Source: Schmidtea polychroa
Taxonomy: Eukaryota
DNA length: 64,000 bases
Direction: 5' to 3'
Assembly: GCA_044892525.1 (NCBI GenBank)
Contig: CM097885.1
Span: forward strand, 35,528,001 to 35,592,000
Below the pieces are notes generated by a model. It saw nothing but the letters and a program-made list of their open reading frames with translations. It was not told the DNA's origin and ran no database searches. The position numbers were made by a program, and so were the translations under genes. Of this stretch, positions 21,787 to 42,892 are shown piece after piece (position 1 is the stretch's first letter; each line of letters opens with the position of its first letter).

Positions 21787-22278
21787 CTAAATATATATAG
21801 TATGATATTCATTAATCAGTGTTGAACAGGCTTGACACTTGCGAACATTCTTCTCGTGACACTTAGAACAAACAATTACATGACCACATGGTAAATACAA
21901 AACCGAAACTCGATTTTCTTTACAAATTGAACAAGTTAAATACCTTTTCTTAACATCGTTCAGTTTTTTCGTTAGCTTATTTTCAATCAAATCGGTTTTT
22001 GCTATCGAATCATAAATCAATCTACTATATCTAGGTTTCAACCTTAAATACATACAACTCCAAAAGTATTCATTCAGTGAATCATTGTTTACTGATATTT
22101 TTTCTAAGTACATTAAATAACAAGATAACTTTAAAATGGATTTCTCATAATTAAATAAATCAAACAAATATTCAATAGAGGAATGTTTGAAAATCTTTAA
22201 AATATTTATGAGTTGCTTATCACTGTAAGTATCATGATTATTTATAAAATCTTCAACTGTGTTGTTAAAAAATTTCAA
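21787..22278 (-). CDS. C-terminal C3HC4 RING finger protein (IAP/MDM2-type RING); 5' part spliced or decayed
   Basis: CSICKENRVSVLYLPCGHVIVCSKC..CQACSTLI..IYI* at the extreme C-terminus. No ATG at the ORF start; candidate 49-bp GT-AG intron at 22384-22336 and an in-frame TAA upstream. Confidence 0.75.
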   Translation of the reverse strand: MKFFNNTVEDFINNHDTYSDKQLINILKIFKHSSIEYLFDLFNYEKSILKLSCYLMYLEKISVNNDSLNEYFWSCMYLRLKPRYSRLIYDSIAKTDLIENKLTKKLNDVKKRYLTCSICKENRVSVLYLPCGHVIVCSKCHEKNVRKCQACSTLINEYHTIYI

Positions 22279-23125: not shown

Positions 23126-25934
23126 TTAAATTTGATCTTCGTCCCATTCGCTGTCGTCAAAACTGGGACTTGGAGCTGGACCGAATTCCTCATCATATTC
23201 GCTTAATTCGTCAACTCCTAGATAGTGCCCAAATGCGTAACTTATGTTTTTTCCTAGCCACGCGCGCTTATCATCATTATTACTTAGGGCAATTTTCGAA
23301 TTTTTAAAAGTAAAAAGTTGGTGATTTCTAGTACCTATTCTAGTCTGCGGTACAGAAATCACCTTATTTGAATGAAAGCAATTTAGATATGTTTCATGAT
23401 TTATTGATGTCCCTGGTAATTTAACCCCCTTCGCTTTTACCGTTTCCTTACTACCTAAAAGACTATAACATTTAGGACGTAAGAAAACCCATTCAGAATA
23501 ACCTAATCCCTTGCTCTCATCTTTAAACTTCCCGATGACCGAGTCAAGGTTCCTATTATACAAGGGGTGTGTTGGATCGTAATTTGACGTATCCAATAAA
23601 TTATCAGAGATCATCTGAGGTAATAGAGTTGTTAATTTTAAATTTTTTATTTCTAGAAAAAAGCTGTCGGTATCACCGGCAATAATATTTATAATACATT
23701 TATATTGACGTCTGTACTTCTCCAAATCAATATATTGGAGCTGATACATCCGCAGTTTAGACAGATCTAGTACTGTTTGACCGATGTAGCTAGGTCTGTC
23801 TAAACAAATTGAATCTTTTTCCAAATGTGCCGCAATCAGATCGTTATCGATTCTTATAGACTTTCTGAAAGTCGGCTTTGAGGAGTATACTATCATCTTT
23901 TCGGATGAATTACACAACCTCAAATTCATTCGTTTTTTCAGATTTTCAACGGATTTACCGTACAGACTGTTATTATACAATTTAAACAAGTCCCTATATA
24001 TCTCGCTAGTAGACTGAGATCGTAAAGTGGTGTTGGTGTCTATGTAGGATTTAAAGATAGGTCCTTGTTTAAACTTTATACATCTATGAATATTTACAAC
24101 AACCGCACCTAATTCTATATACAATTTGAGAAGCCTCCAATGAAGAACATAGTTCCTCTTTGGCCAATGCGTAAGCATAAGCTTCTCAACTTTTGAATTA
24201 GGCGGGCACAACTTTTCCGGCGCAAGCGGAAAATCATTCAAAAAGTCATGCACACATTCCGGAATATCGATATCGACCTCCATAGTATACCCATATGGAA
24301 GGTTATCAATATCCGTGTTCATACATTCAAGTAAAACATCATTCAAGTTATTATTCACCCAAGAAAAATCACCATACGGAAGATTTTGGCTAAGAGCCCA
24401 ACCATATAAATTATTTATATCAATGTACAATAATTCTGTATCATCTGAAGTAGCCGTGTAATGTTTGTTAACAAATGTTAACCCACCCCGGATACCTCCC
24501 TCATAGAAATTATACATTTCCATGTCCTGCAAAAGTTTTATGGGTTCCGTTAATGTCATAAGCGCTGAGGCCCATGACATACCGGGAATCCCGTAGAAAT
24601 TAAGAGGATCCAGACCATTGTAAGCAATTGCCTTACCGCGGAATTGCTGAAAATAGTCTGCGAGGAGGTATACGTCCAATTTTAGGTAGATTAACATATA
24701 ATCTAACAAATTATTACAGTTATGCTGACTCCAAATTAGTTGAGCCTCAGCGTACTGATCTTCCGTAACATCAGAGCAAATAGGAGGTAATTCTAAAGTC
24801 GATTCAAGAACATCCAAAGAAGTAGCGAAATTATATGGAAAGATACCTTTAGAGTGAATCATCGACCCTTGAAAGACAGACGAAGTTAACGGAAAAGTAG
24901 TTAAGGTTTTCACAGCTTTGGCTAAAGAACAATTAACAAATTGCATGCTGTCAATAAAACGAACAGGCAATTTGTTAATATATGCAATTAAAGATATAAA
25001 TTTTTCTGTAGAGGTAGGTATAATATTAAGTTCCCAAAGGGGAAAATCACTGAGACCATGTTTTAAAATATGGTGGAGGTCATAGCCTCGTAAATTATGA
25101 AAGACAACAGGTAACAACTTATTAATCCTGCGAGAGACATTGCATTTCCTACATGCCGCTCCGACATATCTACCTGTAAAATGGCAATGATCTCTCACAG
25201 GATTAATAATAGCTTTTTTACACAAATAACAAATAGTGGTAGATCGAAAGGCACGCTCCTGAGCAAAAGACAAAGTAGACATACCTTTATGACCTTCAAG
25301 TTCATAATATGGCAGGACAATTGTGACAGCAATTTCCTCCACTTTCCTCAAAAAATCCAAAATACAATTAGGTCCAAAAAAATAATAATAAAATTTAGTG
25401 TTTGTATAATTATTAATTAATAAAAGACCTGCTGATATGGGTAAATGTATTTGATGATATGTTTCATGTTCTGGTAAAACCGATTCAAAATCAGCATAAA
25501 TTACGAAGGGAGGTGTAACGGTTTTTGCGTAATCTGTGAATAATAAATCCTTATTTTTAGGAAGTGTATACAAGGTTGTGCCAGTCTGATTTTTACAGCA
25601 TAGAGCAACATGCTGATCGAAAGCATTCTTATATCTAAAGCCATTTAAACAATGTGGGCACCAGTTACACCTTATTTGAACATTTACATTTTCATTTAAA
25701 TGACAATTCATTAATTTGTCCAAGTCTGTCACTGCCGTATAATGATATTTATCTTTATTACTCAAAAGTAATAAATAAATCGGCCTACCATCTATAACCT
25801 TGGAGCGATGTATGATATTAAGATGAGGGTGGTGAGCTACATAATCCTGAGAAATATCACAATCAGAACTGGCTGGATTATACGAAAGAACGTTTATGCT
25901 TAATTTTAAATCACGATTTTTCCTTTCAAATTTG
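23126..25934 (-). pseudogene. pPolB of element A, 3' part (separated from its 5' part by insertion B)
   Basis: Full exonuclease and polymerase motifs. Removing B and one TSD gives CPMRLCNIPK-FERKNRDL, matching CPMKLCDIPKFERKNNDL of X. Confidence 0.94.
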
Positions 25935-26267
25935 AGTAGTGAGGAATCTATGCACCCCAGCACCCCCACCCTAAAAAAAAACAGCGCTATTGACCCATAT
26001 TTTCCACATTTATATGCTTTTTTACCCCATATTCTTCACTTTTTTTAACTTTTAAACTTTGTCCCCTATTGCCATTAACCCTTAATTTCTTCCCTTAAAA
26101 GTAAAAAAGTTCGGAATAGATGTATTTATAGATTAGTAATTCCGAGAAAAGGTAACGGGGTGCATAGATTCCTCACTACTTGGTCTTAAGGATTTAATGT
26201 TATAAGGATTTAATGTTATAAAAATATCAGATTACCTAATTCATAATGATCTAGGTCGCCTGATCAC
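25935..26267 (+). repeat. Left TIR of B, with an internal inverted copy of the terminal 24 bp at 26157-26180
   Basis: Near-perfect reverse complement of 40834-41165. Confidence 0.96.
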
Positions 26268-26313
26268 CTTAAGGTTTTGAAAGTTTTAAAAATAAAAAAT
26301 ATTATGAAATAGT

Positions 26314-26702
26314 AAAACTGCTCTGAGAGGACAGTGGTTTTTTTTTTTTTTTTTTCACTGTCCTCTCAACAGTTTTTTTTTTGATCCGGATCATTTTTTT
26401 TTATTCAACCTCTTTCGTTTATCAAATCTCTTCCAATATACAAGCTGGCCAGACTCATACATCAGAATCAATTCGATAATAGCAGCACACCTTATTATTC
26501 GCTTCTCGCTCGAATACGATTTCATCGGCGTTTTAAGTGTGCTGCTCGAAAGTACAAATGAATTCGAAAGCGAATCCGAAAGAGGTCCGAAAACAACTGA
26601 GAAATAAATGTGCACATTACCGGAATCGATCCGGGGGTGTTCGAAAGACAGGTGGCGATAATTACCGGTTCGCCACCATCACCCGTTTCAATATTTTTTT
26701 TT
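26314..26702. ncRNA. Putative structured RNA/ssDNA region
   Basis: 13-bp stem 26324-26336/26356-26368, 10-bp stem 26481-26490/26537-26546, 8-bp stem 26651-26658/26670-26677; five CGAAA motifs; T-run at the end. Confidence 0.4.
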
Positions 26703-26849
26703 CATATTTATGTTTAAAAAATAATTAATTAATAAAAAAATAAAATAAAATAAAATAAATAAAATAAAATATACAAGTACTTTATAAATATAAGATACCC
26801 ACACTATTATTTTCAAATTTTTAATATTATTTTATGTTGAAAAAAAACT

Positions 26850-26923
26850 AACCTCAGATGTGATTTGAACCACTATCCATTTGAACCACTGTGCCAGTCT
26901 ATTCCCACTGCGCCATCAAGGTT
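26850..26923 (-). ncRNA. tRNA-like putative Pol III gene 3
   Basis: A box TGGCGCAGTGG, duplicated B box GGTTCAAAT, followed by a T8 run; overlaps the end of ORF 26873-27169. Confidence 0.5.
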
Positions 26924-27169
26924 TGAATTTTTGTCATTTTTTAGACTATAAATAATCGATTCAAGTTCTTTAACTCTTTCCTGTAATTGTTTCATTTTCT
27001 TTAATCTTATATCAGCAACATCTACAGCCTTCATATAAAAATGTCGATACTTTTCATTATCTACCATCAACTCTTTGATGTATTCTAATGGTTCTTCTTC
27101 TCTTCTTTTCATTCTCTTATGTTTAACTTCATTCAATTCATTTCTCATTCTTTCTTTTAACTCATCCAT
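26873..27169 (-). CDS. Hypothetical small coiled-coil protein of B
   Basis: 98-aa ATG ORF with an AAAAATG context like other B genes; charged, helical composition. Confidence 0.55.
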   Translation of the reverse strand: MDELKERMRNELNEVKHKRMKRREEEPLEYIKELMVDNEKYRHFYMKAVDVADIRLKKMKQLQERVKELESIIYSLKNDKNSNLDGAVGIDWHSGSNG

Positions 27170-27337
27170 TTTTATAAATATTTTTTTATTGGATATATTA
27201 ATTTTTGGTAGCTTAAGTTAAAACGTTTTTGATCTTAAATTTCCAAGAGTTGCCGTTGACCAATCTCATTAAAAATTTGTACAAGTACTAAATCGAGTAT
27301 GCTGATCAATATTTCGTTAAAAAAAATTGAAAAAAAA

Positions 27338-27410
27338 TGACCGAAATGGGATTTGAACCCATTGGTATTGGCAATGCAGTCGAGTGCTATTACCACTAAG
27401 CTATTAGAGC
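27338..27410 (-). ncRNA. tRNA-like putative Pol III gene 2 (GCA at the anticodon position, anticodon stem unpaired)
   Basis: 73 nt; A box TAGCTTAGTGG; D stem GCT/AGC; perfect T arm ATGGG-TTCAAAT-CCCAT; T-run immediately downstream. Confidence 0.62.
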
Positions 27411-27579
27411 TATACTCAATATAAAATAAGTTGTTAATGTGTGACTATTTATTGATGAAATTGATAATTAATTATTCATTTTCTCGACAACTACCACTCA
27501 GATCCATCTGAAAATTTAAATATATACTAAAATAAGTACGCTGAATCAGATTCCGTTGAAAAAAAATATCGATAAAAAT

Positions 27580-27653
27580 TGACCAAAATCGAAAATTGAA
27601 CCCGGTACTCCCGGTGATAAAATTGAAGCCTATTCCCACTCAGCTATAATGGC
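27580..27653 (-). ncRNA. tRNA-like putative Pol III gene 1
   Basis: 74 nt; A box TAGCTGAGTGG; B-box-like GGGTTCAAT; same GGTCA 3' end as gene 2; T5 downstream. Confidence 0.5.
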
Positions 27654-27709
27654 TTACATAATATATTTAATTATTCCTATTTTATGTGTGTAAATTTTAA
27701 TATATAAAA

Positions 27710-29002
27710 ATGAATAACATAAATCTTAAAATTCAAGAAAAAAATAAATTAAATATTGATTATAATAAAGAATTTACTCATGAAATTAAAAAAAATGATA
27801 TTTTAAAAATCTCCCCTACGTCAGGATCGATTGCAAACTTAAATCGTAGGGGTGATATAGTTTTTCAATCTCTTCAAACATCAAACCCTATAGATATTTG
27901 TAATGCCAAATTATATTATAAAATCGAATTAGAAATTGAAGCAAACAAAGATATAACCCTAGAAAATAATTTCTTTCCAAATTTATTCTCCAACATGAGA
28001 TTAAAACTAGGATCATCAGAAATTGAAACTGTTTTGCATCCGGGAGTATATTCTACAATGTTAAATTTTATTTTGACTGGTTGTGATTATAAAAACGAAT
28101 ATGGTGAATTAACAGGTTGGATTCCTGATGTTAATAAAGGGGATTTAGATAAAGATGGTTTAGATGTAAACCATGGTTACCATAAAAGAGCTGAACTTTA
28201 TAAATCTAAAAAATTTGAAGGTTATTTTGAATTAAAACACTTGTTTGGATTCCTTCAAAACTATAATCGTATACTTCATAATGTTTTTATAGAATTCATC
28301 TGTAATAGAGTAGAAGGTGATAAAAGATTGTTCTATGGAGCTGTAGATACAAAAGCTAAATTAAAATTATCAACACTTGAATTACATATACCTGAATGGA
28401 CATTAAACCCACATTCTGAGATTAAACTCCTTGAAAGATTAAATTCCAACAAGTCTATAAATGTAAATTATTTAAATAGAATCTGTAGTGAATTTAGTAT
28501 GACAGAGGGTTCAACATATTCTATAAAGGTAGCAAATTTAGCATACCGACCAAGATATATCTTGATTGGATTCAAAGAAGTAGATTCATCTTTCCAAAAA
28601 AATAACAACTTGTTTATTCAAAAGATTGGAGTTGATAATTTAAAAACAATCCAAATTCAATTAAATAGTTCTTATTATCCAATAAATAGAATGGAATTTA
28701 ATATTGAAAATAATGAAAACATATTCCCATATCTAAATTATATTGAAACATGTTATGATTTCAAAGTTGAACCGCAATTAAGTTTAGAAGATTTCAAAAA
28801 TTTATATTCTATATTTTGTATAAATGTTTCAGACCAAGATGATCGCCTAGCCATAAATAATGTTGATGTTACACTTCATGTAACAAAGGATTCTAATTTT
28901 AAAGCTAAAGTATATACATTAATATTAGAAGAAAAGAAAATAGAAATGAAATTATATGGTGGAAAGATTTCAATAATCGAAAATGTTAGGGGAGATTCTT
29001 GA
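27710..29002 (+). CDS. Double jelly-roll major capsid protein of B
   Basis: 430 aa; NLNRRGDIVF, NNFFPNLFS..L, PRYILIGF, LNSSYYP, IFCINVS motifs typical of Polinton MCPs; gene context. Confidence 0.85.
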   Translation: MNNINLKIQEKNKLNIDYNKEFTHEIKKNDILKISPTSGSIANLNRRGDIVFQSLQTSNPIDICNAKLYYKIELEIEANKDITLENNFFPNLFSNMRLKLGSSEIETVLHPGVYSTMLNFILTGCDYKNEYGELTGWIPDVNKGDLDKDGLDVNHGYHKRAELYKSKKFEGYFELKHLFGFLQNYNRILHNVFIEFICNRVEGDKRLFYGAVDTKAKLKLSTLELHIPEWTLNPHSEIKLLERLNSNKSINVNYLNRICSEFSMTEGSTYSIKVANLAYRPRYILIGFKEVDSSFQKNNNLFIQKIGVDNLKTIQIQLNSSYYPINRMEFNIENNENIFPYLNYIETCYDFKVEPQLSLEDFKNLYSIFCINVSDQDDRLAINNVDVTLHVTKDSNFKAKVYTLILEEKKIEMKLYGGKISIIENVRGDS

Positions 29003-29031
29003 TATAATCCCTGATATTTTAACATTTTAAA

Positions 29032-30441
29032 ATGTCTCTAAATAAATATTGGAGATGTGAAAGTTGTAATTGTCAAGTTACAAGACATCATAAAGCAAGT
29101 CATTTAAAAACTAAAAAACATACAGGAGGTGATCTAATTCCACGAGCTGGAGGCGATTTGCAATCTTCAAAAACAACATCTTCAATATTAAAACCTTTTA
29201 CTACAGAAAAATATCCAGGTGAAAGACATTTATTTAAACACAACTATACTGGACCAGGAACACGTCTAGATATTAGATTAGATGAAAATAATAATCCCAA
29301 ACAAGGAGAAGAACCAATAAATAGAATTGATCAAGCAGCTTTAAAACATGACATTGCATACAATTCAACAAATCTTAGAGATAGACATGTTGCAGATGTG
29401 AATTTAATACATGATTTAAATAGTATCCAAAATCCATCAACCCAAGAAAAGGTTCAAAGAGCTCTAGTTAAATTAGCAATGAAAGGTAAGATTTTCATAG
29501 GCTTAGGACACAGTCCGATCACCATGGGTGCAAGACTTCCTAGAATAGCAAAAGATGTTGCTTATAAAAAGATTATCGAACAATCAGACATTGAAAGATC
29601 CCTCGAGAGTACAGCCAAGACTAGTTTACAAACCCCAACAGAATCAGAAATAAAATATGCAAAGGAATTACACCATGAATTTAGAAAAAATAAAAAATAT
29701 TTAAAAGTTCAAGTACATGAAAAAGATCAAACATGGTCTGCAGATTTAGTCTTTATGCCCAAATCATCAGACCCTGAAAAATATAAAATAATTTTAACTG
29801 TAATAGATTTATATACAAGATTTGCTTTTGCAAGGTGTTTAGAAAATAAAACAGGATATTCTATTACAGAAGCATTTGAAAATATATTTGAAGAAAATCA
29901 AAGAATCCCAAAATATTTATGGTGTGATAAAGGAACAGAATTTTATAACAAAGTTTTTACAAAGTTTTTAAATGAAAATGATATTAAATTATATTCAACA
30001 GAAAACGAAGGAAAAGCAGTCGTAGTTGAAAGATTAAATAGAACATTAAAAAATAAAATGTGGAAATATTTTACTGCTATTGGAAAACAAAAATGGAACA
30101 ATGAATTGTTACAAAAGATTGTAAATGAATATAATAATGATGTACATAGTTCTATAAAATTAACACCTTTAAATGCTTCCATGAAGCCTGAAACCATTAA
30201 AGTGGTAAATATTGAAAATGATGTTATTGAAAAACCAAAGTTTAAAATTGGTGACCGAGTAAGAATATTTAAATATAAAAATTAATTTGAAAAAGGATTC
30301 ACAGCAAAATGGACAAATGAAATTTTTATTATAAATAAAATAAATTATACAACTCCAATAACATATAGCATCTTTGATTTAAATAATGAAAAAATATTAG
30401 GTAGATTTTATAATAATGAACTACAGAAAACTGATTTTTAA
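29032..30441 (+). CDS. Zinc finger + parvovirus-type PLA2 (PLA2X) + rve integrase fusion, with a premature TAA at 30283-30285
   Basis: CESC..H..H; HNYTGPGT..D.AALKHDIAY; WSADL, IDLYTR, CDKGTEF, VERLNRTLK. The frame continues after the stop as FEKGFTAKWTNEIF..GRFYNNELQKTDF*. Confidence 0.92.
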
Positions 30442-30452
30442 GTCGACAAGCC

Positions 30453-31244
30453 CTAAAACAAACTTTTCCATATTTCAGCTTCTTCTCTATCCAAATAAAT
30501 ATAATTATATTTTTCTTTCCAATGATTATCAACAAACATATCAAACATATTCTTATCAGGTTCAACATTTGAAAATAAATCATTATAAATCATATTCTTA
30601 TCACGGCGATCTAATTTAAAAAATATAAAACAATTGGAATTATTTCTTATTGAATTTTTATCTAAAGCATAATATGTTTGAGATATATAAATAACATTAC
30701 AATTATTATGTCGACCTCGTGTAAAGTAACTCTTTTGAATCTCTTGATTTTTCATGTTGACAACATCATCAAATATAACTAGATTCTTTTTATCTTTAGG
30801 AAGTAAATCACAATGTAAAACATCTTCAGGTTTATTAGAGAATAAAACTTGAATTGCCTCCTGCCCTTCTTCACAAATATAATCATTTTTATTACTAATA
30901 TCTGATTCTAAAATCTTTTCCTTATACCAATCAACCATATCACAAGGTTGAAAAACTTCTTCAGGACACCTATGTTGATTTTTAAAAATATCAATTATTG
31001 CTTTTTTAGTTAATTTATTTTCAAATCCACATTTCAAAAGTTGTAATTCTGGTTGATTTATGGTTGTAGAATAAAAGATTAAATTATTATAATCTAAAAA
31101 ATCATCTTCAAGTAACATTCTCAAAACAAGTACATTCTTTCCACATCCAGAAGAACCAACAATTAATAATCTAAAATTATCAGGAAATACTTTATTATTG
31201 AATTTACTCTTATGTCTATTTAAAATTGGTTTCCAAGTATCCAT
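30453..31244 (-). CDS. A32/FtsK-like DNA packaging ATPase
   Basis: Walker A GSSGCGKN (variant), Walker B LVIFDD, FTRGRH..ISQ, IRNNSN. Confidence 0.93.
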   Translation of the reverse strand: MDTWKPILNRHKSKFNNKVFPDNFRLLIVGSSGCGKNVLVLRMLLEDDFLDYNNLIFYSTTINQPELQLLKCGFENKLTKKAIIDIFKNQHRCPEEVFQPCDMVDWYKEKILESDISNKNDYICEEGQEAIQVLFSNKPEDVLHCDLLPKDKKNLVIFDDVVNMKNQEIQKSYFTRGRHNNCNVIYISQTYYALDKNSIRNNSNCFIFFKLDRRDKNMIYNDLFSNVEPDKNMFDMFVDNHWKEKYNYIYLDREEAEIWKSLF

Positions 31245-31260
31245 TTTTATTTATTATAAA

Positions 31261-31839
31261 ATGACAACTGAAGAATCTTTGCAAGAATTAATAAATTCAA
31301 ATAAAAATAAATCAGTAGTAATTGATGGTAAAAAATATTTTATTGGAAAACATGTAAAAGAACAAGTTAGAGCGAAGCTCCACGAAGCTAAAGAAGGTGG
31401 CATTCTTCCATTAGCTGCTTTAATACCTGCAATCATTGCTGGTTTATCAGGTGCTGCTGGAATAGCTGGAGGAATTGCAACTACAGTTCAAAAAGCTAAA
31501 GAATCTCAAAAGACAGACCTAGAAAAAGAAAAACTACAAACTGAAATCGATTCAATGAAGAAGGTAGGGCAAGCTAAAGGGGGAGTGTCCGTTGGAAAGG
31601 GTCTCTATCTTAATCCATATGAGGGGAGTCGGCAAAAGTCTCAGGGCAAAGGTCTCTATCTTGATCCTTATAAAGGTAGAGGTTTAAATGATTTTTTAAA
31701 AAATCAAATTTCTACATCTGAATCTTTATCTTCAAAAGATAAAGAAGATTTAAAAAAAATATGTAAATCTTTAAAGAATGGATGCCTTTGTAAAACTAAA
31801 AATGGTAAAGGATTATACTTGAAGCCCTTCGAACTATGA
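31261..31839 (+). CDS. Putative virion core / membrane-active precursor with adenain-type cleavage repeats
   Basis: ATG 31261; EGG-ILPLAALIPAIIAGLSGAAGIAGG hydrophobic segment; three GKGLYLxP repeats. Confidence 0.7.
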   Translation: MTTEESLQELINSNKNKSVVIDGKKYFIGKHVKEQVRAKLHEAKEGGILPLAALIPAIIAGLSGAAGIAGGIATTVQKAKESQKTDLEKEKLQTEIDSMKKVGQAKGGVSVGKGLYLNPYEGSRQKSQGKGLYLDPYKGRGLNDFLKNQISTSESLSSKDKEDLKKICKSLKNGCLCKTKNGKGLYLKPFEL

Positions 31840-31861
31840 TACCATTTTTGATACCATTAAA

Positions 31862-32755
31862 ATGGTATATGAAGAAAGATTAGCACTTTTAAAAAAATTA
31901 CAATCAGAACAAGATAAATATAATAAAAAAGATACAACTCAACATGCTGAATCTATAATATTAAATGAGGTAATAACACAACAACAGGGGCCAACAATTA
32001 AAGCTATAAAAGAGTTGGAAGATTTCAATGAGCAAGCAAAATTTAAAGAGTTAGAAGATAAAAAACAAAAAATAAAAGAACTAGAGTGGCAGGATAAAGA
32101 AAAAGAATCCAGTGAAAACCATCCTGAAAGTCATTCTGAAAGAAATCAAAGAAAACGCAGAAGAATTTCTAATGTGGAAGAAGAAGAAATGTTTTTAAAA
32201 ACAAAACCTCTTAAAGTTGATCCTAAAATTAGAGATGATTTACCTCCTTCAATTAGACCCACATTTAATACTAATACTGAAGGATATCAAATAATAACAA
32301 TTAATAAACAAAACTTTACTTTATATTCAAATTCAGAAAATAAATCACGTATTCATTCACAAAATGTTTATAATAATGAATATTTAGACTTTGAATTTAC
32401 AGATGATTTTTATAGATTACTTTGTGGATATTCTTCAGATGATGTTGAAGAAATTAAAAAATATTTAAATTTAATAAAATTAATAAGAGCTAGTTCTAAA
32501 GCAAAATATATTCAAGATTTAAAGAATTATTTAAATAAAAATGAAAAGGGTTATGTTGTTACAGAGGGAGAGGGATTAATTAGTGAAGGTGGTAAACCAA
32601 ATCCCATCAATCTTTTTATTGAATTAAGAAAACTATTAGCTGCAAGGAAAGCAGGACATAATAATTTAGATTCTGATATTTTAAAGATTTCTAAAGATTT
32701 GTTAAAACAAGGAATAATTTCAAAAGATAAATTTAATAAGTATACGAAGTTATAA
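31862..32755 (+). CDS. Conserved Polinton protein of unknown function (putative virion protein)
   Basis: C-terminal GEGL..LRKLLAARKAGHNN..I..I...L...GII motif recalled from Polinton proteins. Confidence 0.65.
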   Translation: MVYEERLALLKKLQSEQDKYNKKDTTQHAESIILNEVITQQQGPTIKAIKELEDFNEQAKFKELEDKKQKIKELEWQDKEKESSENHPESHSERNQRKRRRISNVEEEEMFLKTKPLKVDPKIRDDLPPSIRPTFNTNTEGYQIITINKQNFTLYSNSENKSRIHSQNVYNNEYLDFEFTDDFYRLLCGYSSDDVEEIKKYLNLIKLIRASSKAKYIQDLKNYLNKNEKGYVVTEGEGLISEGGKPNPINLFIELRKLLAARKAGHNNLDSDILKISKDLLKQGIISKDKFNKYTKL

Positions 32756-32777
32756 ATACGAAGTTTTAAAATACAAA

Positions 32778-33203
32778 ATGACTCCTTCAATATTAGATTT
32801 TTTAAAAACATTTGGAATAAATGCAAAAACAAATTTTGATTTAAAAGATTATGCAAATTATTTAAATTTAAAAATTAAAATATTAATGAATGATGAATTA
32901 TCAAGTCTGGAGAGTCCCCTGAATATAATAATCAATTATCAAAATTCAAATGAAAAAGGATCTCATTGGGTTTGTATATATAAGAAATCTATCTACTTTG
33001 ATTCTTTTGGGATTAAACCTACTAAAGAAGTTGAAGATTATCTCTTGAGGGGTTCTCCGATTGATTCCCCAAATGGTTATACTTTTAACTCTTTACAAGT
33101 TCAACCTTTGAATACTAAAATATGTGGTATTTTAAGTTTATATGTTTTGTATAGATTGAATAAGGGAGAGAGAAAGGGCATACGCAGGATTTTGAATCTA
33201 TAA
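32778..33203 (+). CDS. Adenain-like cysteine maturation protease
   Basis: GSHWVC, YFDSFG, Q..NTKICG give the His-Asp-Gln-Cys catalytic pattern. Confidence 0.92.
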   Translation: MTPSILDFLKTFGINAKTNFDLKDYANYLNLKIKILMNDELSSLESPLNIIINYQNSNEKGSHWVCIYKKSIYFDSFGIKPTKEVEDYLLRGSPIDSPNGYTFNSLQVQPLNTKICGILSLYVLYRLNKGERKGIRRILNL

Positions 33204-33289
33204 TTCAAGAAATTTATAATGATCTAGAATCTCTACTATAAGGATTTTTACTATAAGGATTTTTACTATATGAATTTACTACTAAAGAA

Positions 33290-34054
33290 ATGGAGCTTCA
33301 CAACCCTCCGGAAGATAATTTAAAAAAAATGGTAAACATAATGTCAGATAAATATTCAAGAACTTTATCTATAAATTCAAAAGAATCAGACTTTACTGTA
33401 AACTTTCAAGATTCAATTAAATTAGATCAAAATTTAAATTATGAATTGGGGCTATTATGGTTTTGTGCTTATAATACTATTTTTAATATAACTAAAGATA
33501 ATAATAAATTTACTATTTAAACTCGTGATGGGCATAAACCAGAAATTATAACAATAGAACCTGGGGCATATGAGATAAAAGATTTAAATGATATACTTTC
33601 TAAAAAAACAAATGAAGGTATTAAAATTAAAATGGATATACCAACTTCAAAATGTGTAATGACTTTGAAGAATATAAAAATTAGTTTTTTAGATAATTGT
33701 TTCTTTCACACAGTTTTAGGATTTAAACCTATGGATATAACAATAAAAGAAGATAAAATAATAACATCAGAACATATTATAAAAATAATAAATACAAACA
33801 CAATAAATATTCATTGCGATTGTATAACAGGTTCTTATAATAATGGTAAACAAACAAATGTTTTATATTCCTTTCCCTCAAACACAGTTCCTATGGGATA
33901 TAAAATAGTTGAAAGAATGAATCCTCCAAATTATTTACCTTTATGTAGAAAATATATAATGGATATTAATTTTAAAATTCTTAATCAAGAAGGAGAATTG
34001 ATTGATTTTAATGGAGAAGAGATTTCAATGTATTTACATTTGAAACAGGTTTGA
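33290..34054 (+). pseudogene. Minor capsid (penton-like) protein of B with an in-frame TAA at 33518-33520
   Basis: Both ORFs share a frame; YELGL..YNTIFNIT..NNKF, PGAYEIKDLN, INIHCDCITGSYNNG, PMGYKIVE, IDFNGEEI. Confidence 0.88.
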
Positions 34055-34078
34055 AGATTCATTTTAAATTATTAATAA

Positions 34079-35089
34079 ATGAGTTCTTATATTCCATGTA
34101 ATAGAGGTGGTGGAACAATAAAAACAGGGTTTAATACAGAAGAAATATTAACTTTAACAGAAAATAAATATATTAATGAAAGAGGTGATTCAATGAAGGG
34201 TGATTTAATTTTAAATGGACACAAGATAAAAGAATTATCTTTTCCAACTGATGAAGCTGATGCAGTTAATAAGAAATATGTAGATGGTGTTAAAAAATAT
34301 ACTGATTTAACAACAACAAGAATTGAAAGTTCATTAACAACAAAAATTGATTCAATGGAATCAAAGCTTAATAATATCGAACAACGATTTAATGATAAAT
34401 TTGACAAGTTACAAAGTCTGTTAACTGAACAAGTTGTAAAGTTAAATACTGCTATATTAAATTCTAAAGATAAACAAATTATGAATACTAAATTTAATGC
34501 AATATATAATATAATAAATGAGATGATTACATCATTTAATAAAAGAATTTCAAATTTAGAGTCTCATGGAACACACATTAACACCACACATAGTATTAGA
34601 AAAAGAGCTGCTGAATTAGAACAGAATAAAACATTATTACCCCATACATTTAAACATTTTATAGAACCAAGTTTAATAACAACAAACAGTAAAGAATGGG
34701 GTGTTTTTATGGTTGTAAAAATTATTGATCCTTATTTCTTTTTGTTTGATGATGATAATGAAAGAATGAAATGGTTTGTGAAATGTGATTATAATAGTAA
34801 GCTTGAAAAGGGTGATGTTATAATGACTAGTTATGATTTACCACACGGAGATTGGTATGTTAATACTCATTCACATGGACTACATAAAGTTAAAAGTAAG
34901 AATATTCATTTTTCTAGTTCACTTGTACAATATATAGATTTAATATTTTATGAAAAAAAGGTTGATGTTGATGAAGTTCGTAAAGCATTGAGAGAATTGT
35001 ATAAAGATATCCTCTCAACAAGAGTTTCTTTTGATATCCGAGTATTGGTACCAGATGGTGCTCAGAAGAATAAAGTCTTATTTTTTTAA
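34079..35089 (+). CDS. Putative fibre/spike protein
   Basis: GDSMKGDLILNGHKIKELSFPTDEADAVNKKYVD fibre-type repeat, then coiled coil and a globular C-terminus; follows the penton gene. Confidence 0.6.
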   Translation: MSSYIPCNRGGGTIKTGFNTEEILTLTENKYINERGDSMKGDLILNGHKIKELSFPTDEADAVNKKYVDGVKKYTDLTTTRIESSLTTKIDSMESKLNNIEQRFNDKFDKLQSLLTEQVVKLNTAILNSKDKQIMNTKFNAIYNIINEMITSFNKRISNLESHGTHINTTHSIRKRAAELEQNKTLLPHTFKHFIEPSLITTNSKEWGVFMVVKIIDPYFFLFDDDNERMKWFVKCDYNSKLEKGDVIMTSYDLPHGDWYVNTHSHGLHKVKSKNIHFSSSLVQYIDLIFYEKKVDVDEVRKALRELYKDILSTRVSFDIRVLVPDGAQKNKVLFF

Positions 35090-35097
35090 TTATTAAA

Positions 35098-35688
35098 ATG
35101 GAAGAAGTAAGAGAAGAAAAAATTTACCCAGAATTGAGATCATCAGGATATTATTCTTCTAAGGCCTCGGCTCCCACAGAACTTGAAATTATGAGAGTAA
35201 AAGAATTTAAATCAGAAACCTTACATTTACAAGATTTATTAAAGCATTATAAAAAAATTAAAAATAGATGGAATAAAGGGAATACAGTTTTAAAAGTTAT
35301 AGGTTATTCTTTAGGATTTGCATCTGCAATATTAACAGTTATTTTACCCATAACTTTACCAGTTGTTACTCTTGCACCTGTAATACTTGGAAGTATTTCT
35401 GTGGCTGATGGTTTCTTAACTGAAATAGTTTCATTATCTTATACTTCTAAAAAGAAAAGTTTATATAGAGAAGTTTGTTTATCAATAGAATTAGGAATCT
35501 CTAAATTATTTTTATTTCAATTAAAAGCTTTGGAAGATGGAATCCTGACAGACGAAGAAATAATGAAATCAAATCAAATAATACAAGATATAAAGAATGA
35601 GGTTATAAGATTAAAAATGGAGGGCATGGTGGCTAATGTTATAAGTAATAAAAAAACATCTCGAGAAAAATGGTTAAAGAATTCTTAA
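35098..35688 (+). CDS. Membrane-hairpin protein (resembles the adintovirus GasderminX family)
   Basis: Basic helix, ~40-aa hydrophobic hairpin, KKK, KALEDGILTDEE. Confidence 0.6.
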   Translation: MEEVREEKIYPELRSSGYYSSKASAPTELEIMRVKEFKSETLHLQDLLKHYKKIKNRWNKGNTVLKVIGYSLGFASAILTVILPITLPVVTLAPVILGSISVADGFLTEIVSLSYTSKKKSLYREVCLSIELGISKLFLFQLKALEDGILTDEEIMKSNQIIQDIKNEVIRLKMEGMVANVISNKKTSREKWLKNS

Positions 35689-35788
35689 TTATAAAATGGG
35701 TGTATTTTTAAAAAAGTAGATCAGGTTGCTATAGTTGCTTAAATTAATTGTCGACATTTTATTATTAAAAAATTAAATATCGTTGGTT

Positions 35789-36343
35789 TCAGTTATGGTT
35801 GAAAGCCAACCTATGAATCATTAATTTATGATCTTTAAATTCTTTATCACTTAGACCTTTTATATATTCAGGATCAGTATTAAAATATTTAAGTTCTAAA
35901 CATATAGGATTAAAAACTTGAGAATATAAAGGTTTCTCGATTTCTCTCTCGGGATAAATAATTTCAACATTATAAATATCAAGATCAGTAATCTTTGTAT
36001 CATATAACTTATTCAACTTTTCTAGATTTTTTATTATAGGGATTAAATTATTTCCAATAGGTAGAGTTGTCTTTAAATCACTTAGTATGAATCTCTTATC
36101 ATCATAATTTGATAATGATATTTTTTGAGATTCTATCAAGTGAATATCATGGTTTTCACTTTTAAGTTGATGTATTTCATCAATTTTATCTTTATGATTT
36201 GGATTCAATGTATCTATATAATCTTGATGAGAAAGATTCTTTGCAACCACTCTCTGTATTCCTTTACATCTGTTATCCTTTAAATTAGTAATATTTTTTA
36301 TAATTTCAAAAATGTTATTTTCTTGATTTTTAGTTTCCATCAT
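35789..36343 (-). CDS. Stand-alone paralogue of the pPolB C-terminal (thumb + tail) region
   Basis: KGIQ..HQDY..LKSE.H.I.L..NYDDKRFILSDLKTTLPIGN.LIPIIKNL..LKYFNTDPEYI shared with the adjacent pPolB; has its own ATG. Confidence 0.8.
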   Translation of the reverse strand: MMETKNQENNIFEIIKNITNLKDNRCKGIQRVVAKNLSHQDYIDTLNPNHKDKIDEIHQLKSENHDIHLIESQKISLSNYDDKRFILSDLKTTLPIGNNLIPIIKNLEKLNKLYDTKITDLDIYNVEIIYPEREIEKPLYSQVFNPICLELKYFNTDPEYIKGLSDKEFKDHKLMIHRLAFNHN

Positions 36344-36367
36344 TTTATAGTGTTAAAATTCTAATTC

Positions 36368-39300
36368 TTAGACCAGTCGTAATTGATTTATAATTATTTC
36401 TGCAGTAATGCTTTTTAACATTAATTTATGTGATTTAGAGTCTTCTGGTGTTAGTCCTTGGATATATTCAGGATCAGTATTAAAATATTTAAGTTCTATA
36501 GGTTTTATATTTTGAACTTGATTATATAAAGGTTTAGGAATTAATATTTCAGGATATTGGATTTCTACTTTAGCAAGTTGAAGGTCTGTAATCTCTAGGT
36601 TATAAATTTCATTTATTTTATCAAGATTTTTTATTATAGGGATTAAATCATTTCCAATAGGTAATGTTGTCTTCAAGTCAGAAAGTATAAATCTTTTATC
36701 ATCATAATTTGTTATAGCAATCTTGTTACACTCTTCAAGATATATATTATGTTTCTCTGATTTAAGATGATGGGTTTTAGCAATTTTATTTTTATAATTT
36801 ATATTTAATGAATCTTTATACTCTTGATGTGTGAAGGTTTTTGACACTGATTTTTGAATTCCTTTACTTTTATTTTCTTTATAGCTTTTCGGGTTTTCAG
36901 GGAATGAAGGATATTCAAATGTGTGATCTATTTCAACAGATCCTTCTCCCTCCCCTATTATAAATTTTATTGTATGCTCTTTCATAATTGGTTTGTCTTT
37001 CATTTCAAGAGAATATTGTTTAGGTCTAATAAACACTCCTCCACTTATTGGAGTATTTGGTTTTTCATCTTTAAAAGTAAATAATTCTCCAGAGTTGTTT
37101 ATTAATTTATTTAAGGTTTCGTTTTCACTTATTTCCTTTTTTAAATCTTTACTATGACCTTTTAAAAACATACTATCAGTGTCCATAGCATGCATGGATA
37201 TTCGATCTCCAAAATGGGGTACTAGAACATCATAGTAGGTCTCATACATTTGAAGCTTTGAAAGTTCTAAAATTGAAAAATCTATAAAGATTGGTTTATT
37301 ATAAGTTTTTACAGAGTTTTTAATCTCTATAGCTATAAGGTTACTAGAGAATATCTCTGCATTTTTAAATGTAGGCTTTCCAATTATTCGATTATATTTA
37401 TTAAGATCTTTTGTTGTATTGGTTAAGAGCTCTACACGAGTATATTTATCAATATTCTCCATTGTCTTTCCAAAGACTGCATTGTTTAAAAGTTTATAAA
37501 TCATATCAAGAAAAGCATTTCCAGCTCTCTTTGCTGCATTTCTTTTTAAGATATTTCCCTCGATGAATTTTTTCATAAAAGGAGCTTGTCGAAATTTAAT
37601 TATAGAATGTACTTTTTTTAAAACCATTCCATATGAGAGATAAAACTGGAGGAGTCTATAATGACAAAGATAATCAGTTTTATCTGTTTGATCACATAAA
37701 AGTTTTATACATGGTGTTCTATTCTGAGCAATCTGCCAATCTGATAGTTCTTCAGGAGAGATCTTTCTTCTTACAGGAGCAAATGGAAAATATCTAGTTC
37801 TGGATTTTATTTCATTGGGATATTCAAGATCACATTCTACAACATATCCAAATTGAGAATCTTTTGGTGTTTTTAGAATTTCTTGTATTAATTCCTCAGT
37901 GGGTTCTGTCCAGGTGAACTTGCCAATTGAAAGGTATTGAGTCATTACTCCCGCATATAAAGCTGTTGCATCTATATACATTATTTCAGAAGGATTAGAA
38001 AGACCTTCCATTATTTCCTTACGATCTTCTGGGTTTGTTATTTCTACATATAGAGCATCAGGATCTTTGAAAAATTTAGGATAAAGAGTTGTAAAATTAT
38101 TAGCATTTATTTCTCTATTCCCTTGTACTGAAGAAATACCTCCTCTAATATTATGTTTATATACATTAAACATATCAAGCTCAACTAATAATTCAATAGT
38201 TTTATTTCTTACTGCTACATCTTCATCAGTCCATATGGTATATAATAATATATCCCAAGCTAGAGAGGGAGCGGTTATATAATTATAAGGTTTTAATTCA
38301 AAAGCTTTTGAAAATGTCTCGAAGCAATCAGCTAAGATATAAACATCCAAGGAAAGATACATGTCAGTATATTCTCCAAGGTTTCTACAGTTGAATAGAT
38401 TCCACATTTTAACTGCACGGGAATATTCCTGATCAGAAATCCCTGATTGTGTTAAAACAGAAAAGAAATCTTCTTGGGGTGGGAGTAATTCATTATATTT
38501 TTCAAAGGAGTCTATATAATCATATGAATAGATTCCTTTTGCTAGACAGGTATTATATTCCTCTAATGGAATATTGTTTTTTAATAACACATGTTCTTTT
38601 GTATATTTAAAATCCTCAGGGTTCATAGTTTTAGCAATCCCATCCAAAGACATCCCTAAGAAATTTAACGAGTCCAAAAACTTAAAGCATCCATATTGAA
38701 TGCTTTTATATTTTTCTTTTGTAAGTCCAATAACCTTGAAAGAGATTTTAGCATTTGCGGCCAGATGCTTAATGAATAGGTGAATATCATAGCCAAAAAG
38801 ATTGTGAAATATAAATGGTATGTGTGTTGGTTTTTTACAATTGAGATTACATTTTTATGGGCTGCTCCTCTGTAATTATTTTCTCTTTTAAAATGATCAT
38901 GGTCTGCAACCTTTGGCTCCTCATCCTCCTCCTCCTGAATATCAAACTCTTGTTTACACATCCAGCAGTGTGTTGCATTTTTATATTCTTCCTCTTGTTC
39001 TTCTGAAAAATTCATAGGAAAGTTGGATTTTAATATTATATATAATTCATGTTCTAGATTATTTAAAGTTTTAACAAAATGATCTAGAGTCTCTTTGTCA
39101 GAAGTTCCTCTAAATGAATATTCTCTAGATTCTACAAGTTCTGGATAATTACTTTTAAAAAACATTTTATAAGCAGAGGGTAATTGTTTTGTTAGTTTTA
39201 CAGTATTAGTTTTTGTTCGTCTTAGTTTTACATTTATAGCTTCAAAATCACAATAAACCACTCCCAATGCTTCTAATAGATTGGAATAGTTTTTAAACCT

Positions 39301-40760
39301 CATATTAGCATTTTTCTTGTGTGGCATTTTTATTAAAGCAGGTTGATTCTTACAACAGAGTCTCTCATGTTTAATAGCAGCAAGTTTTGAACTTGAATGA
39401 TATAAACATCTTTTACAACATATGCCTCCACGAATGAGTGTGTTTCCTTTCATAAAACTTTGAAAATTCTTTATTAAGATATAATGAAGTTTTTTATCTA
39501 ACATAGTGCCTCCGGACGCAGTGCTTTCTGCTTCTGGTTCTAATGAAATGCCTTCTTCTGCTTCTCTCCTCGGGTGAACGCTTTGAACCTCTTCACCATA
39601 TTCTTCTCCATCAAAGTCTTCATCTGGTTTACCTTCTTCTAATATTAAAAGATCTACTTCTCTCTTTTCATCTGAGATTTCCATGTTAGAAATGTAAATA
39701 GGAATAATGTGTTTATAATTTTTATTTTTTCTAGTTTTTGTAATTTTGGTTGGAATGAATTGATAAATATTAATTTTAAGATTATTTAATTTTTCAAATG
39801 CTGGAACATCTTCAATTTTCATTGGGTGGGAAAAATCTTTTGGATAAATTAATTCAGATTCATATTCTTCATATTTTTGAACTCTCTGTGGGTTAGTTGC
39901 TTGAGGATGTAAGTGTGCAAGTATTGACCATTGAAAACATTTATTATCTTTATTCTGTACATTTATAACATGGTTGGAGGTGAATGGTGTGTGAATAAAA
40001 GATTTAGGATTTGGTGGTGCGCCTCTCCAGTATTCAATCTCTATATTTTGAAAAGAGTGGAATCTTAAATTAGATTCTCCTAGTTCTTGTTCCACCTGTT
40101 CTTGTTTTTCTTCCAATTCTTTAGCTATATCATTAACAAGTTTATTTCCTGCTTTTGTAGAAAATAAATATTTATATGAGGTTTCAATTTTTACATCTAG
40201 AGGCATTGCGATTGAATCATCTCCTCTCCAGTATTTTGCATTTCCTGTAAATTTAACTTTTATAACATTAAATCTTGATCTACCAAATTTTTTTATAGCA
40301 TCATCCATTGATGATATTATTTTTTTTTATTTTCTCTTATATATTGCATGATTGATCTGGGTCCTCGTTTTACTTCTACAATTACATCGGTGTGATTGAA
40401 GTTGTCCCAATTAAACTCTAGTTTTTCAGCTTTTTCAGTCATTGAGTTTGAATCAGAATCTTTTGCTTCAAGACCACAATCTTCTATGTGTCTTAAGTAA
40501 AAAGATTTTATCTTCATCTTTTTTCCACATGCTGAACATTCGAATATTTCTCTGTTTTTAGGAACTCCAATACAATTTTTAAAATGCTTCTTATAACCTG
40601 AAAATAAATATCTATCCTTACATTTAGAACAGATTTTGGAATTAGTGTCATCTAGTGTGTTAGCTTTTATTAAATGGTCTTTTGATTTTTTATGAGATGT
40701 TAAAGCAGTTTTATTTTTAAAATTTTTTTCACAAATTTCACAATTGAAAATAGCTTCCAT
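36368..40760 (-). pseudogene. pPolB of B with N-terminal C2H2 zinc fingers, split by two single-base frameshifts in A-runs
   Basis: Adding one A at 40320-40328 joins RENKKK to IISSMDDAIKK. Adding one A at 38852-38856 restores RGAAHKKCNLNC..FHNLFGYD. Motifs YCDFE, YIDATALY, KLLNNAVFGKT, MDTDS, RPKQY. Confidence 0.9.
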
Positions 40761-40833
40761 TTTTAAAAGAATTTTTTGGTTGGATACGATGTTTTGGTTT
40801 TGATATTAATTTTTATTTTCTTTAAATCTAAAA

Positions 40834-41165
40834 GTGATCAGGCGACCTAGATCATTATGAATTAGGTAATCTGATATTCTTATAACATTAAATCCTTATA
40901 ACATTAAATCCTTAAGACCAAGTAGTGAGGAATCTATGCACCCCGTTACCTTTTCTCGGAATTACTAATCTATAAATACATCTATTCCGAACTTTTTTAC
41001 TTTTAAGGGAAGAAATTAAGGGTTAATGGCAATAGGGGACAAAGTTTAAAAGTTAAAAAAAGTGAAGAATATGGGGTAAAAAAGCATATAAATGTGGAAA
41101 ATATGGGTCAATAGCGCTGTTTTTTTTAGGGTGGGGGTGCTGGGGTGCATAGATTCCTCACTACT
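40834..41165 (-). repeat. Right TIR of B, with an internal terminus copy at 40921-40944
   Basis: Reverse complement of 25935-26267. Confidence 0.96.
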
Positions 41166-41171
41166 AATTTG

Positions 41172-42578
41172 GGAATGTTACATAGCCTCATCGGGCAATA
41201 GAGGTAAAAATTCTATATATTTGGCGGCTCTTTGGTGATTACGACCTATTTCTTCTCTTTTTAAAAGTGCAAGAATGCTATATAAGAAACACTTATGGTC
41301 GTTGTTTTTTACATTAATTATTGCATGTTTTAATTTTAATGCTGATGGGGTTTTTATATAGCTATGTCCGGATAATCTACTAACGGGTGCGTATTTCGTT
41401 AAAATAAAATCTATCTCTAAAATATTCATTACGCGCCACCCGCTTCCTAAATAGGTGAATTGCTCAATCTTTTCATTTAATTTGCTCACCCCCTCGTTTA
41501 TAAAGTTTGATGTAAAAACTTGAGCATTGTTTGAAAAATAATTATCCCGGATCTCCTCATCTTTTTCAAATTTAATTAAAATTGTAAATTGAATTTTTAC
41601 ATTGCCCATCTTTTCTATTTCCTCTATTAATCTTTCTTCAATTTTTGATGTTAGGGCTATTTTTACTAAGTTTTGATTTCTAATATCAAATTTTAAGGTT
41701 TTTCGCGATCCGTTCAAATCGGATTCTACCATAGGTTCAAACAAAGAGCCGCCTATTTGACATATGTTGAAAGACGTTGAAGCTACACATTCATCATTGA
41801 TGACTATCACTTCTTGTTGTGTAATGGGTGCGTGTTGTGTAATGGGTGCGTGTTGTGTGAAAGATGTTGAAGCTGATGACTATCACTTCAGGTCGCGATA
41901 ATTTATTCGGAATAAAATTGTTAATTAAACCAGCAGGTCTTTTAATAGAATCTTTTTTAATAATATTTATAGAATCTTTTTTAATAATATTTATAGTATC
42001 TTTTTTAATAGTATCTTTTTTAATAGTATCTGTTTTTTCTTTTATAATATTTTTTTTAATATTTTTTAAATCTTTTTTAATATCTTTTTTAATATCATCT
42101 TTTTTAATAATATTTTTTTGATTTTTTTGTAAATTTTTTTTATTTATTTTTTTATTTATTTTTTTAAATAAAACATTTTTTGAAATCGAAAATTGCCCTA
42201 AGTGACTATGATGTTTATTAAAAAATTCCCTATATTTTATTTTTTCGCTAGTCACGCATTTGGGACATATAAAAAAGTTGACTGAATTAAATGTTTTCCT
42301 ATAATATTTTTTCATTGTTCGGTGACACTGTTCGTTATGCCCAATTGAGGATTGACAATAATTTGGGTATAGTCTACCTGTTAAATAATAAAATTAAAGT
42401 TTTATTCTATATAGAAAACTATTTATTACATCTATAAGAAGTTATCATCATTTGTTATATAATTCAAATGAACTATATAACAAATGATGATAAATCCTTA
42501 TAGAAAATAGGTTAATATATTTGAGAGAATATGTTAAATATTAGAGTGACTATAGTATATACGTCAGATTATTATTTA

Positions 42579-42659
<81 letters not shown>

Positions 42660-42708
42660 AAAGAGAAGTAGCTGCATGCTCACTGCAAACTACTGTATAC
42701 GGGGTTTG

Positions 42709-42770
<62 letters not shown>

Positions 42771-42859: not shown

Positions 42860-42892
<33 letters not shown>

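Follow-up and report, generated by a model that had tools for sequence, protein, structure and literature searches.

An outward row of tRNA-type promoter units, with a candidate structured RNA gene, at the ends of an abundant Polinton family of Schmidtea polychroa

Results

The element and its surroundings

The window analysed here is a stretch of 64,000 nt from Schmidtea polychroa (contig CM097885.1, positions 35,528,001 to 35,592,000, forward strand), to which all coordinates below refer. It contains a Polinton/Maverick element, here called B, which carries the characters by which such elements are recognised, namely a protein-primed PolB (DNA_pol_B_2), an rve integrase with a PLA2-like domain, a DJR capsid protein (PF21738) and a packaging ATPase (A32), together with terminal inverted repeats and a 6-bp target duplication (25929-25934 and 41166-41171). 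The polymerase is split among several ORF pieces in the window copy. The features of the element and of its left end are as follows.

25935..41165, plus strand: Polinton/Maverick element B, 15.2 kb, with terminal repeats and Pfam domains
25935..26309, plus strand: left terminal inverted repeat of the window copy, ~375 nt (right arm 40799-41165)
26294..26683, minus strand: u4, predicted Pol III gene of ~385 nt, outward-pointing, with A and B boxes, fold z -8.3 and a T6 run at 26299-26294
26308..26376, minus strand: 3' hairpin of u4, its loop rich in A, immediately ahead of the T6 stop; z -8.2, both arms exact in 69/128 loci
26421..26479, minus strand: long imperfect hairpin of u4 (10 bp, 2x2 loop, 15 bp), pre-miRNA-sized, with a strand-specific fold
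26623..26632, minus strand: u4 B box, GGATCGA type; 70/76 variants have one of two forms, which differ at the free position 60
26665..26675, minus strand: u4 A box, the same in 72/76 distinct natural variants
26849..26923, minus strand: u3, tRNA-like unit native to the element; A box 26915-26905, B box 26871-26862, T8 26847-26840
26873..27169, minus strand: small coiled-coil ORF, optional, 98 aa in the window copy and 73-98 aa among copies
27205..27698, minus strand: 494-nt block with u1 and u2, homologous to the rDNA spacer (92-95% best-match identity, 5/5 spacers), ending at the empty-site junction
27338..27410, minus strand: u2, degenerate tRNA whose 5' half resembles host tRNA-Cys(GCA); A box 27403-27393, B box 27359-27350, T8 27337-27330
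27581..27653, minus strand: u1, more degenerate than the other units; A box 27646-27636, B box 27602-27593 without C61, T5 27578-27574, T8 27566-27559
27710..29002, plus strand: major capsid protein gene (PF21738, E 6e-26), directed inward and divergent from the Pol III units

A 140-aa piece of the capsid protein has 2,624 candidate matches in the 781-Mb host genome, and all 150 candidates that were scored are 100% identical; the 900-bp region with the units matches at 96-100% in 40 of 40 scored genome places. The B family is very abundant and young in this genome.

Element B is inserted into the polymerase gene of another Polinton. Nested pieces of this second family, with a different PolB and different capsid-side genes, occupy 1-13077, 23126-25711 and 41178-47944 of the window, where they are without any A/B-box unit, and a 108-aa RING-finger ORF (IAP-type C3HC4, 21787-22113) adjoins the outer polymerase. 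Within the window copy of B, the integrase ORF (29032-30285) is fused to an N-terminal PLA2-like domain (PF08398). The PolB/ZnF half (36368-40800) is 68-81% identical to copies whose right end bears the Pol III module; the window copy, with this divergent half and its own module-free right end, may be a recombinant between subfamilies. Further downstream, a 7,070-nt inverted repeat (48186-63774; 100% identical arms, 1,449-nt spacer, many satellite-like repeats) may be a terminal repeat of great length or else stem from the assembly.

Four A/B-box units beside the capsid gene

The first-pass annotation had described three minus-strand tRNA-like units, each with an A box, a B box and a T-run, and all three are present at those places (u1 at 27653-27581, u2 at 27410-27338, u3 at 26923-26849). 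A generic pattern of A box, 25-50 nt, B box and T4, devised after the units had been seen, has exactly three matches in the 64 kb, namely u1, u2 and u3. Dinucleotide shuffling of the 15.2-kb element in chunks, repeated 1000 times, gave one match in 7 cases and two in none, an expectation of 0.007 matches per element-length shuffle, and 6 of 5000 shuffles of the 900-bp region had one match; the units lie far beyond chance. A relaxed A/B-box scan of the window detects a fourth, previously overlooked unit, u4 (A box at 26675), 170 nt beyond the flagged region. All four are directed outward, divergently from the capsid gene, with ~45 nt between A and B box. The B box claimed for each of the flagged units is borne out for u2 and u3, which like u4 have C61, but not in full for u1, which lacks it. 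The downstream T-runs (T8 after u2 and after u3, T5 and then T8 after u1, T6 after u4) are comparable to the T6-T7 in which host tRNA-Lys and tRNA-Arg genes end. One A-box position, recorded alongside u1, differs in the window copy from all 29 other copies compared.

As the first-pass annotation held, u1-u3 are not functional tRNAs. Paired positions in the standard register (acceptor, D, anticodon and T stem) amount to 5/7, 3/4, 2/5 and 4/5 in u1, 5/7, 3/4, 2/5 and 5/5 in u2, and 6/7, 1/4, 2/5 and 2/5 in u3, against 7/7, 3-4/4, 5/5 and 5/5 in three host tRNA types taken as a control; the anticodon stem is thus broken in each unit, and ARAGORN calls no tRNA among them. Of the three, u2 alone is matched by the Rfam tRNA model, above its gathering score (32.4 bits against 29). 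The proposal that these three units are analogues of adenovirus VA RNA fares worse: in each of them the T-run stands right behind the tRNA-like body with no hairpin after it, and u1 and u3 fold no better than shuffles, so they would be poor analogues of VA RNAs or of the herpesviral tRNA-like genes known as TMERs.

Distribution among Polinton ends

Among 30 loci picked by their capsid gene, 29 have u4 and one or two u3-type units less than 1.5 kb from that gene; u1 and u2 occur in only 5 of the 30, and the small ORF is optional. The first 30 u3 matches by position are all in Polinton ends (15 beside the capsid gene, 14 beside the ZnF/PolB genes and one truncated), and u1 with u2 accompanies 8 of the 15 capsid-side ends and none of the 14 polymerase-side ends. 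Likewise, 30 of 30 exact u2 matches on contig C1 are in Polinton modules, and 20 of 20 u4 matches lacking a partner of the u3 pattern, chosen from the first 100, are still in Polinton ends. In these samples, ordered by position and all from the start of C1, no free-standing copy with an insertion site of its own was seen for u3 (0/30), exact u2 (0/30) or u4 (0/20). Since every sampled match is part of a Polinton, a host SINE, the reading that would have undone the earlier proposal, fails in these samples. The terminal repeat of the four two-ended copies compared measures 908-1038 nt and includes u4 and u3 in each case; the window copy has the module at its left end only.

Related capsids were also sought beyond the family. 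Two relatives, P0002 and P0003, are 73-74% identical, and P0002 matches the present genome at only 73-75%. Viral contigs yielded no relative by capsid alignment, u4 motif or ATPase, and metagenome contigs gave no match to a single capsid query; with a capsid alignment as query, 38 metagenomic loci were found. None of the 38, most of them with short flanks, has an A+B unit. ARAGORN at a low threshold made 11 weak calls in 8 of these loci, none of which Rfam confirmed in the 18 loci scanned (3 of the 8 included). A structured stretch in one locus (L091) was rejected as an RNA candidate, being coding and folding no better than shuffles. In another locus, from a metagenomic Polinton whose capsid is 50% identical, a long strand-biased hairpin is followed by T7 (L092:3785-3900, minus strand; z -7.2 against -4.8); it overlaps only a 65-aa ORF, and no A/B boxes were found there.

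The u1+u2 block and the rDNA spacer

The u2 pattern has 3,015 genome matches, more than Polinton left ends account for. We compared 11 stretches spanning five rDNA intergenic spacers (rDNA placed via 5.8S; rRNA genes placed by Rfam in three of the five regions), and the block 27205-27698 recurs in all five between the end of 28S and the start of 18S. There, ~3 kb beyond 28S and on the strand opposite to the rRNA genes, it belongs to an array of tRNA-like units in which u0 and u1 are followed by u2 in two or three copies, repeated with a period of 243 nt. The additional unit, u0, matches the genome at 701 places, the first 100 of which are mostly at rDNA spacing, and has no match in the Polinton loci examined; ~700 rDNA units account for the non-Polinton u2 copies. 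Neither u3 nor u4 has a match in the five spacers.

Spacer homology is carried by 107 of 170 Polinton loci, some of which overlap. On one side it stops at the same spacer position in 97 loci; on the other, 104 loci have it stop at one of three adjacent positions. The junction of block-less Polinton copies falls at these very ends and has 6 nt of microhomology to one end of the spacer piece. Contigs from public sequencing runs bridge such junctions at 27199-27693 (runs X1/X2), 26943-27703 (X7) and ~27200-27695 (X3). The coincidence of homology ends and empty site points to a probable transfer from spacer to element. Because the block is absent from about half of the left ends and fills a clean empty site, u1 and u2 are likely a passenger captured from the host rDNA spacer, and not a SINE. 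The variable-site rate in Polinton copies (10/74 in u1, 8/73 in u2) equals that of the flanks and the capsid gene, so no extra constraint on either unit is seen.

The likeness of u2 to tRNA-Cys is limited to the 5' half through the GCA anticodon, and over its whole length it is 46/73 identical to tRNA-Cys and 47/73 to tRNA-Lys, so that no single parent tRNA stands out. The host genome has about 1,000 matches to the intact tRNA-Cys motif, and host tRNA genes form long single-type tandem arrays (G000:C1:269250644 onward, C4:76658343 onward, and on C140, C333 and C474), with periods of 281 nt for tRNA-Cys, 424 nt for tRNA-Lys and 278 nt for tRNA-Arg. In the spacers themselves, arrays of 4-5 degenerate tRNA-like Pol III units lie at L189:8280-9470 (G000:C115:22280-23470) and likewise in L191, L193, L196 and L198. 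The spacer array, present in about 700 units, may be a spacer boundary element; a narrow literature search found no published description of it.

u3 conserves its boxes

The u3 pattern has 2,128 exact genome matches, and each element end carries one or two copies. In 85 distinct variants, drawn from 164 hits in one genome, a common variant is found in 1 of 21 box columns, at the permitted purine (R) position, against 23 of 53 other columns (Fisher 0.0009, a value that overstates the case because the copies are kin and not independent). Variation centres on acceptor and T-stem positions, in mosaic combinations. Judged by this variation, u3 is a unit that retains its promoter and not its fold, and it is likely a TFIIIC/Pol III landing site. 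The box conservation anticipated across copies of B is therefore found in u3, where the boxes are fixed, but not in u1 and u2, which vary like their flanks. Similarly, the alternative idea of TFIIIC-bound sites beside the capsid promoter would be fitted best by u3. The single element-encoded cassette of three units does not survive the comparison, with u1 and u2 common to the rDNA spacer and absent from 7 of 15 capsid-side ends. The earlier observation was thus real and partly misread: two of its units are probably a spacer capture, and one is a conserved promoter unit.

A second B-box core inside u3 (26889-26880 in the window) is nearly invariant and too near the A box for normal use, and some u3 copies have three B-box cores. 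The last codons of the 98-aa ORF (27169-26873) overlap u3 in the window copy; this small coiled-coil ORF matches no Pfam family, and its Atlas matches are all unnamed.

u4, a candidate structured RNA gene

The head of u4, with 3,022 genome matches at one mismatch or fewer, is not a cloverleaf (3/7, 1/4, 1/5 and 4/5 pairs), and RNase Z release is not expected because it does not fold as a tRNA. The predicted fold of u4 is stronger than that of shuffles (z -4.65 over 301 nt, z -8.3 over 389 nt) and depends on the strand. For the body (26400-26600), the minus strand reaches -68.8 kcal/mol and has 14 G-U pairs, the plus strand -43.4 kcal/mol and one G-U pair; for the hairpin at 26421-26479, the minus strand reaches -24.2 kcal/mol (z -5.0) and the plus strand -2.3 kcal/mol (z +1.2). 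The 3' hairpin (26308-26376) folds equally on both strands (-29.8 against -28.7 kcal/mol). There is no stem between the 5' and 3' ends, the 5' end pairing locally in the predicted fold.

The natural variation available comprises 76 distinct u4 variants, all from one genome. Across five helices, common variants keep the pair in 10 of 12 cases, mostly by G-U to A-U or G-C changes, against 10 of 24 for rare variants, and in the 26421-26479 hairpin all six common variants (two in the 3' arm, four in the 5' arm) keep it. Common substitutions are not rarer at paired positions (21/178) than at unpaired ones (9/109; p 0.43), and the sole pair changed on both sides is 26538/26489. Internal deletions occur in three of six variants that were folded, with a weaker fold (z -2.4 to -3.0), and some copies have deletions in the middle helix. 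On the strength of its strand-specific fold and pair-keeping variants, u4 looks to be selected as a minus-strand RNA.

An A-tract lies at 26402-26394, and the first run of at least five T comes 70-120 nt past it in 126 of 128 loci. The internal T4 of u4 need not stop Pol III, because host tRNA genes end in T6-T7 and the host tRNA-Lys gene itself has an internal T4. Searches of Rfam returned no family at its threshold for u4, miRNA families included, and the adenovirus VA RNA model has no match to the units at E up to 5 or 10. A likeness between the u4 head and 7SL/Alu was considered and rejected, no SRP family matching at E up to 10.

Contigs from sequencing runs

Contigs from public runs also cover the units, and are not counted as evidence here: from contig depth one can neither rank different parts of a region nor infer start, end, strand or level. 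With this proviso, summed depth in X1/X2 (one study, RNA by our guess) is mostly 1,000-25,000 over u4, 150-1,500 over u3 and 0-21 over u1 and u2, and contigs of these two runs (3 and 8, respectively) end at the A-tract at 26394 with 10-13 extra T, tails that exceed the longest genomic tract seen (16, among 128 loci) and carry no evidential weight either. Equally uncounted are X3 (type unknown), with roughly even depth and a dip at the AT-rich spacer, and X5 (type unknown), in which all four units are ~tenfold deeper than the ORFs, an excess that could reflect open chromatin, GC bias or rDNA copies. X10 has no contigs over the region.

Discussion

Collectively, the boxes and their layout, the distribution among copies, the homology to the spacer and the strand-specific u4 fold describe Polinton ends that carry an outward row of tRNA-type (type 2) promoter units, apparently of two origins. 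We propose, with about even confidence, that u3 and u4 are native to the element, that the u4 RNA is a decoy or substrate of silencing proteins and u3 a landing site, and that u1 and u2 are likely passengers. TFIIIC would bind the internal A and B boxes of u4, and host Pol III would read it from ~26683 to the T6 run at 26299, yielding an RNA of ~385 nt predicted to form long G-U-rich hairpins. Like VA RNA, these could occupy Dicer/Drosha-type or other dsRNA-binding proteins, as a decoy or as a substrate, and silencing of an element with thousands of copies would be damped. Meanwhile u3, as a TFIIIC/Pol III landing site, would keep the end open between the terminus and the inward capsid or polymerase promoter, and the captured u1+u2 block may add further landing sites while being dispensable. 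The best reading of u4 itself is, on its predicted fold and promoter, a Pol III structured RNA akin to VA RNAs and TMERs in its working and a member of neither family. A generalisation, that animal Polintons make an abundant VA-like RNA from a Pol III gene in the terminal repeat and so blunt silencing, which would help the present family to attain its thousands of copies, with rDNA-spacer promoters recruited to keep the ends open, is offered only tentatively.

Several other explanations have to be weighed. A rather unlikely one is that the units act in cis alone, TFIIIC and Pol III on u1-u4 forming a chromatin barrier or nucleosome-free zone for promoters and replication ends, with any RNA a by-product. 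Fission yeast tDNA barriers are described as requiring both TFIIIC and Pol III (PMC2040200), u3 is conserved in its boxes alone, the short units are interchangeable at one to three per end and, at both kinds of end, diverge from the adjacent start of the capsid gene or of ZnF/polymerase, and a second box-bearing set was acquired and spread to about half of the left ends. Left unexplained, however, are 300 nt of minus-strand-specific G-U-rich structure in u4 and its pair-keeping variants. It is unlikely that u4 is a primary microRNA transcript of the TMER or foamy virus kind, from which the 59-nt hairpin at 26479-26421 would be cut into a microRNA against host mRNAs. A tRNA-like head followed by hairpins, a pre-miRNA-sized hairpin folding on one strand only and the fewer common variants of its 3' arm would suit such a gene, and Pol III pri-miRNAs are reported from foamy virus LTRs (PMC3993851); yet the head is not folded as a tRNA, the hairpin is embedded in a multi-branch fold, and there is neither an invariant 22-nt arm nor a miRNA family at threshold.

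That all of the units are neutral host scraps in a young, fast-spreading family, the u4 fold stemming from a host RNA or a replication DNA hairpin, seems improbable. The u1+u2 block is such a scrap, copies are 96-100% identical and the 3' hairpin folds alike on both strands; against this, u3 and u4 have no counterpart in the rDNA spacer, free-standing copies number 0 in 50 position-chosen loci, the boxes are fixed amid variable columns, and a DNA palindrome would not give 14 against 1 G-U pairs by strand. That the units are inserted copies of a tRNA-derived SINE of the host, u4 being a complete one that closes with an A-tail, is very improbable: the tRNA-like head of u4 and the A-tract at 26402-26394 are reminiscent of one, but all matches sampled at the start of C1 are in Polinton ends (u3 30/30, exact u2 30/30, u4 20/20), and the rDNA units explain the u2 copies elsewhere. 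Almost certainly wrong is the notion that the short units are working tRNAs aiding translation of an AT-rich element, as proposed for Polinton-like viruses, in which tRNA genes do occur (PMC12220804). The Rfam score of u2, its GCA anticodon and its perfect T arm speak for it, but each of the three has an anticodon stem at 2/5 and a broken acceptor stem, ARAGORN makes no call, and the host already has its roughly thousand intact tRNA-Cys motif matches.

With a Pol III RNA that is structured and apparently under selection, the strategy of VA RNAs, EBERs and TMERs would be known from an endogenous virus-like transposon as well, and there would be a testable handle on how an element present at ~3,000 ends per genome escapes silencing. 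Capture of the spacer array, for its part, would be a clean and datable case of host-to-element transfer. In our search of the open-access literature, no paper turned up that describes Pol III non-coding RNA genes in animal Polintons. Adenoviruses and other eukaryotic dsDNA viruses are regarded as descendants or sisters of Polintons; adenovirus, the carrier of VA RNA, is of the same broad viral lineage, and its VA RNA is about 160 nt long.

Adenovirus VA RNA, described as having boxes A and B and serving as a Dicer decoy, shares with u4 (in VA RNA I/II, RF00102) the internal box A/box B promoter, the T-run terminator and long imperfect stems (PMC7589676). u4 differs in its greater length (about 385 nt), its lack of a terminal stem and of an Rfam match, and its position in a terminal repeat. 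Its only GGGU/ACCC pair (GGGU at 26684, ACCC at 26638) encloses the 5' A-box hairpin and not a central domain, so that the VA arrangement of terminal stem, central GGGU/ACCC domain and apical stem is not found in it. Long dsRNA-like stems are predicted for u4 alone among the units, u1-u3 having no VA-like fold.

The TMERs of MHV68, a cluster of non-chargeable tRNA-like Pol III genes reported at the left genome end (PMC4337559), resemble the Polinton module in this clustering at an end, and u4 in having a tRNA-like head followed by predicted hairpins (PMC4337559, PMC8223928). In contrast, the u4 head is no cloverleaf, u1-u3 end behind the body without a miRNA hairpin, the host is not a mammal, and two of the units are common to host rDNA. 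Closer in setting are the pri-miRNA genes of foamy virus LTRs and bovine leukaemia virus, hairpin genes with A and B boxes that likewise lie within the terminal repeats of integrating elements (PMC3993851); these are short single or dumbbell hairpins, whereas u4 is longer, multi-branched and part of a dsDNA Polinton.

TFIIIC-bound chromatin barriers (tDNA and ETC sites), described as B-box-bearing units at the edge of a domain (PMC2040200), are known from host chromosomes, and it is in layout that the Polinton units would fit them. Finally, Polinton-like viruses, virophages and MELD viruses likewise carry tRNA-derived sequence in a Polinton-type genome (PMC12220804, PMC8502044), and the main text of the latter source contains no occurrence of 'VA RNA' or 'polymerase III'. 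The tRNA genes of Polinton-like viruses are reported as intact tRNAs (PMC12220804), and those of the three groups, apparently intact, are read as codon compensation, whereas the units of the module described here are degenerate, with the promoter kept and the fold lost. To this the module adds a candidate for a long structured RNA.
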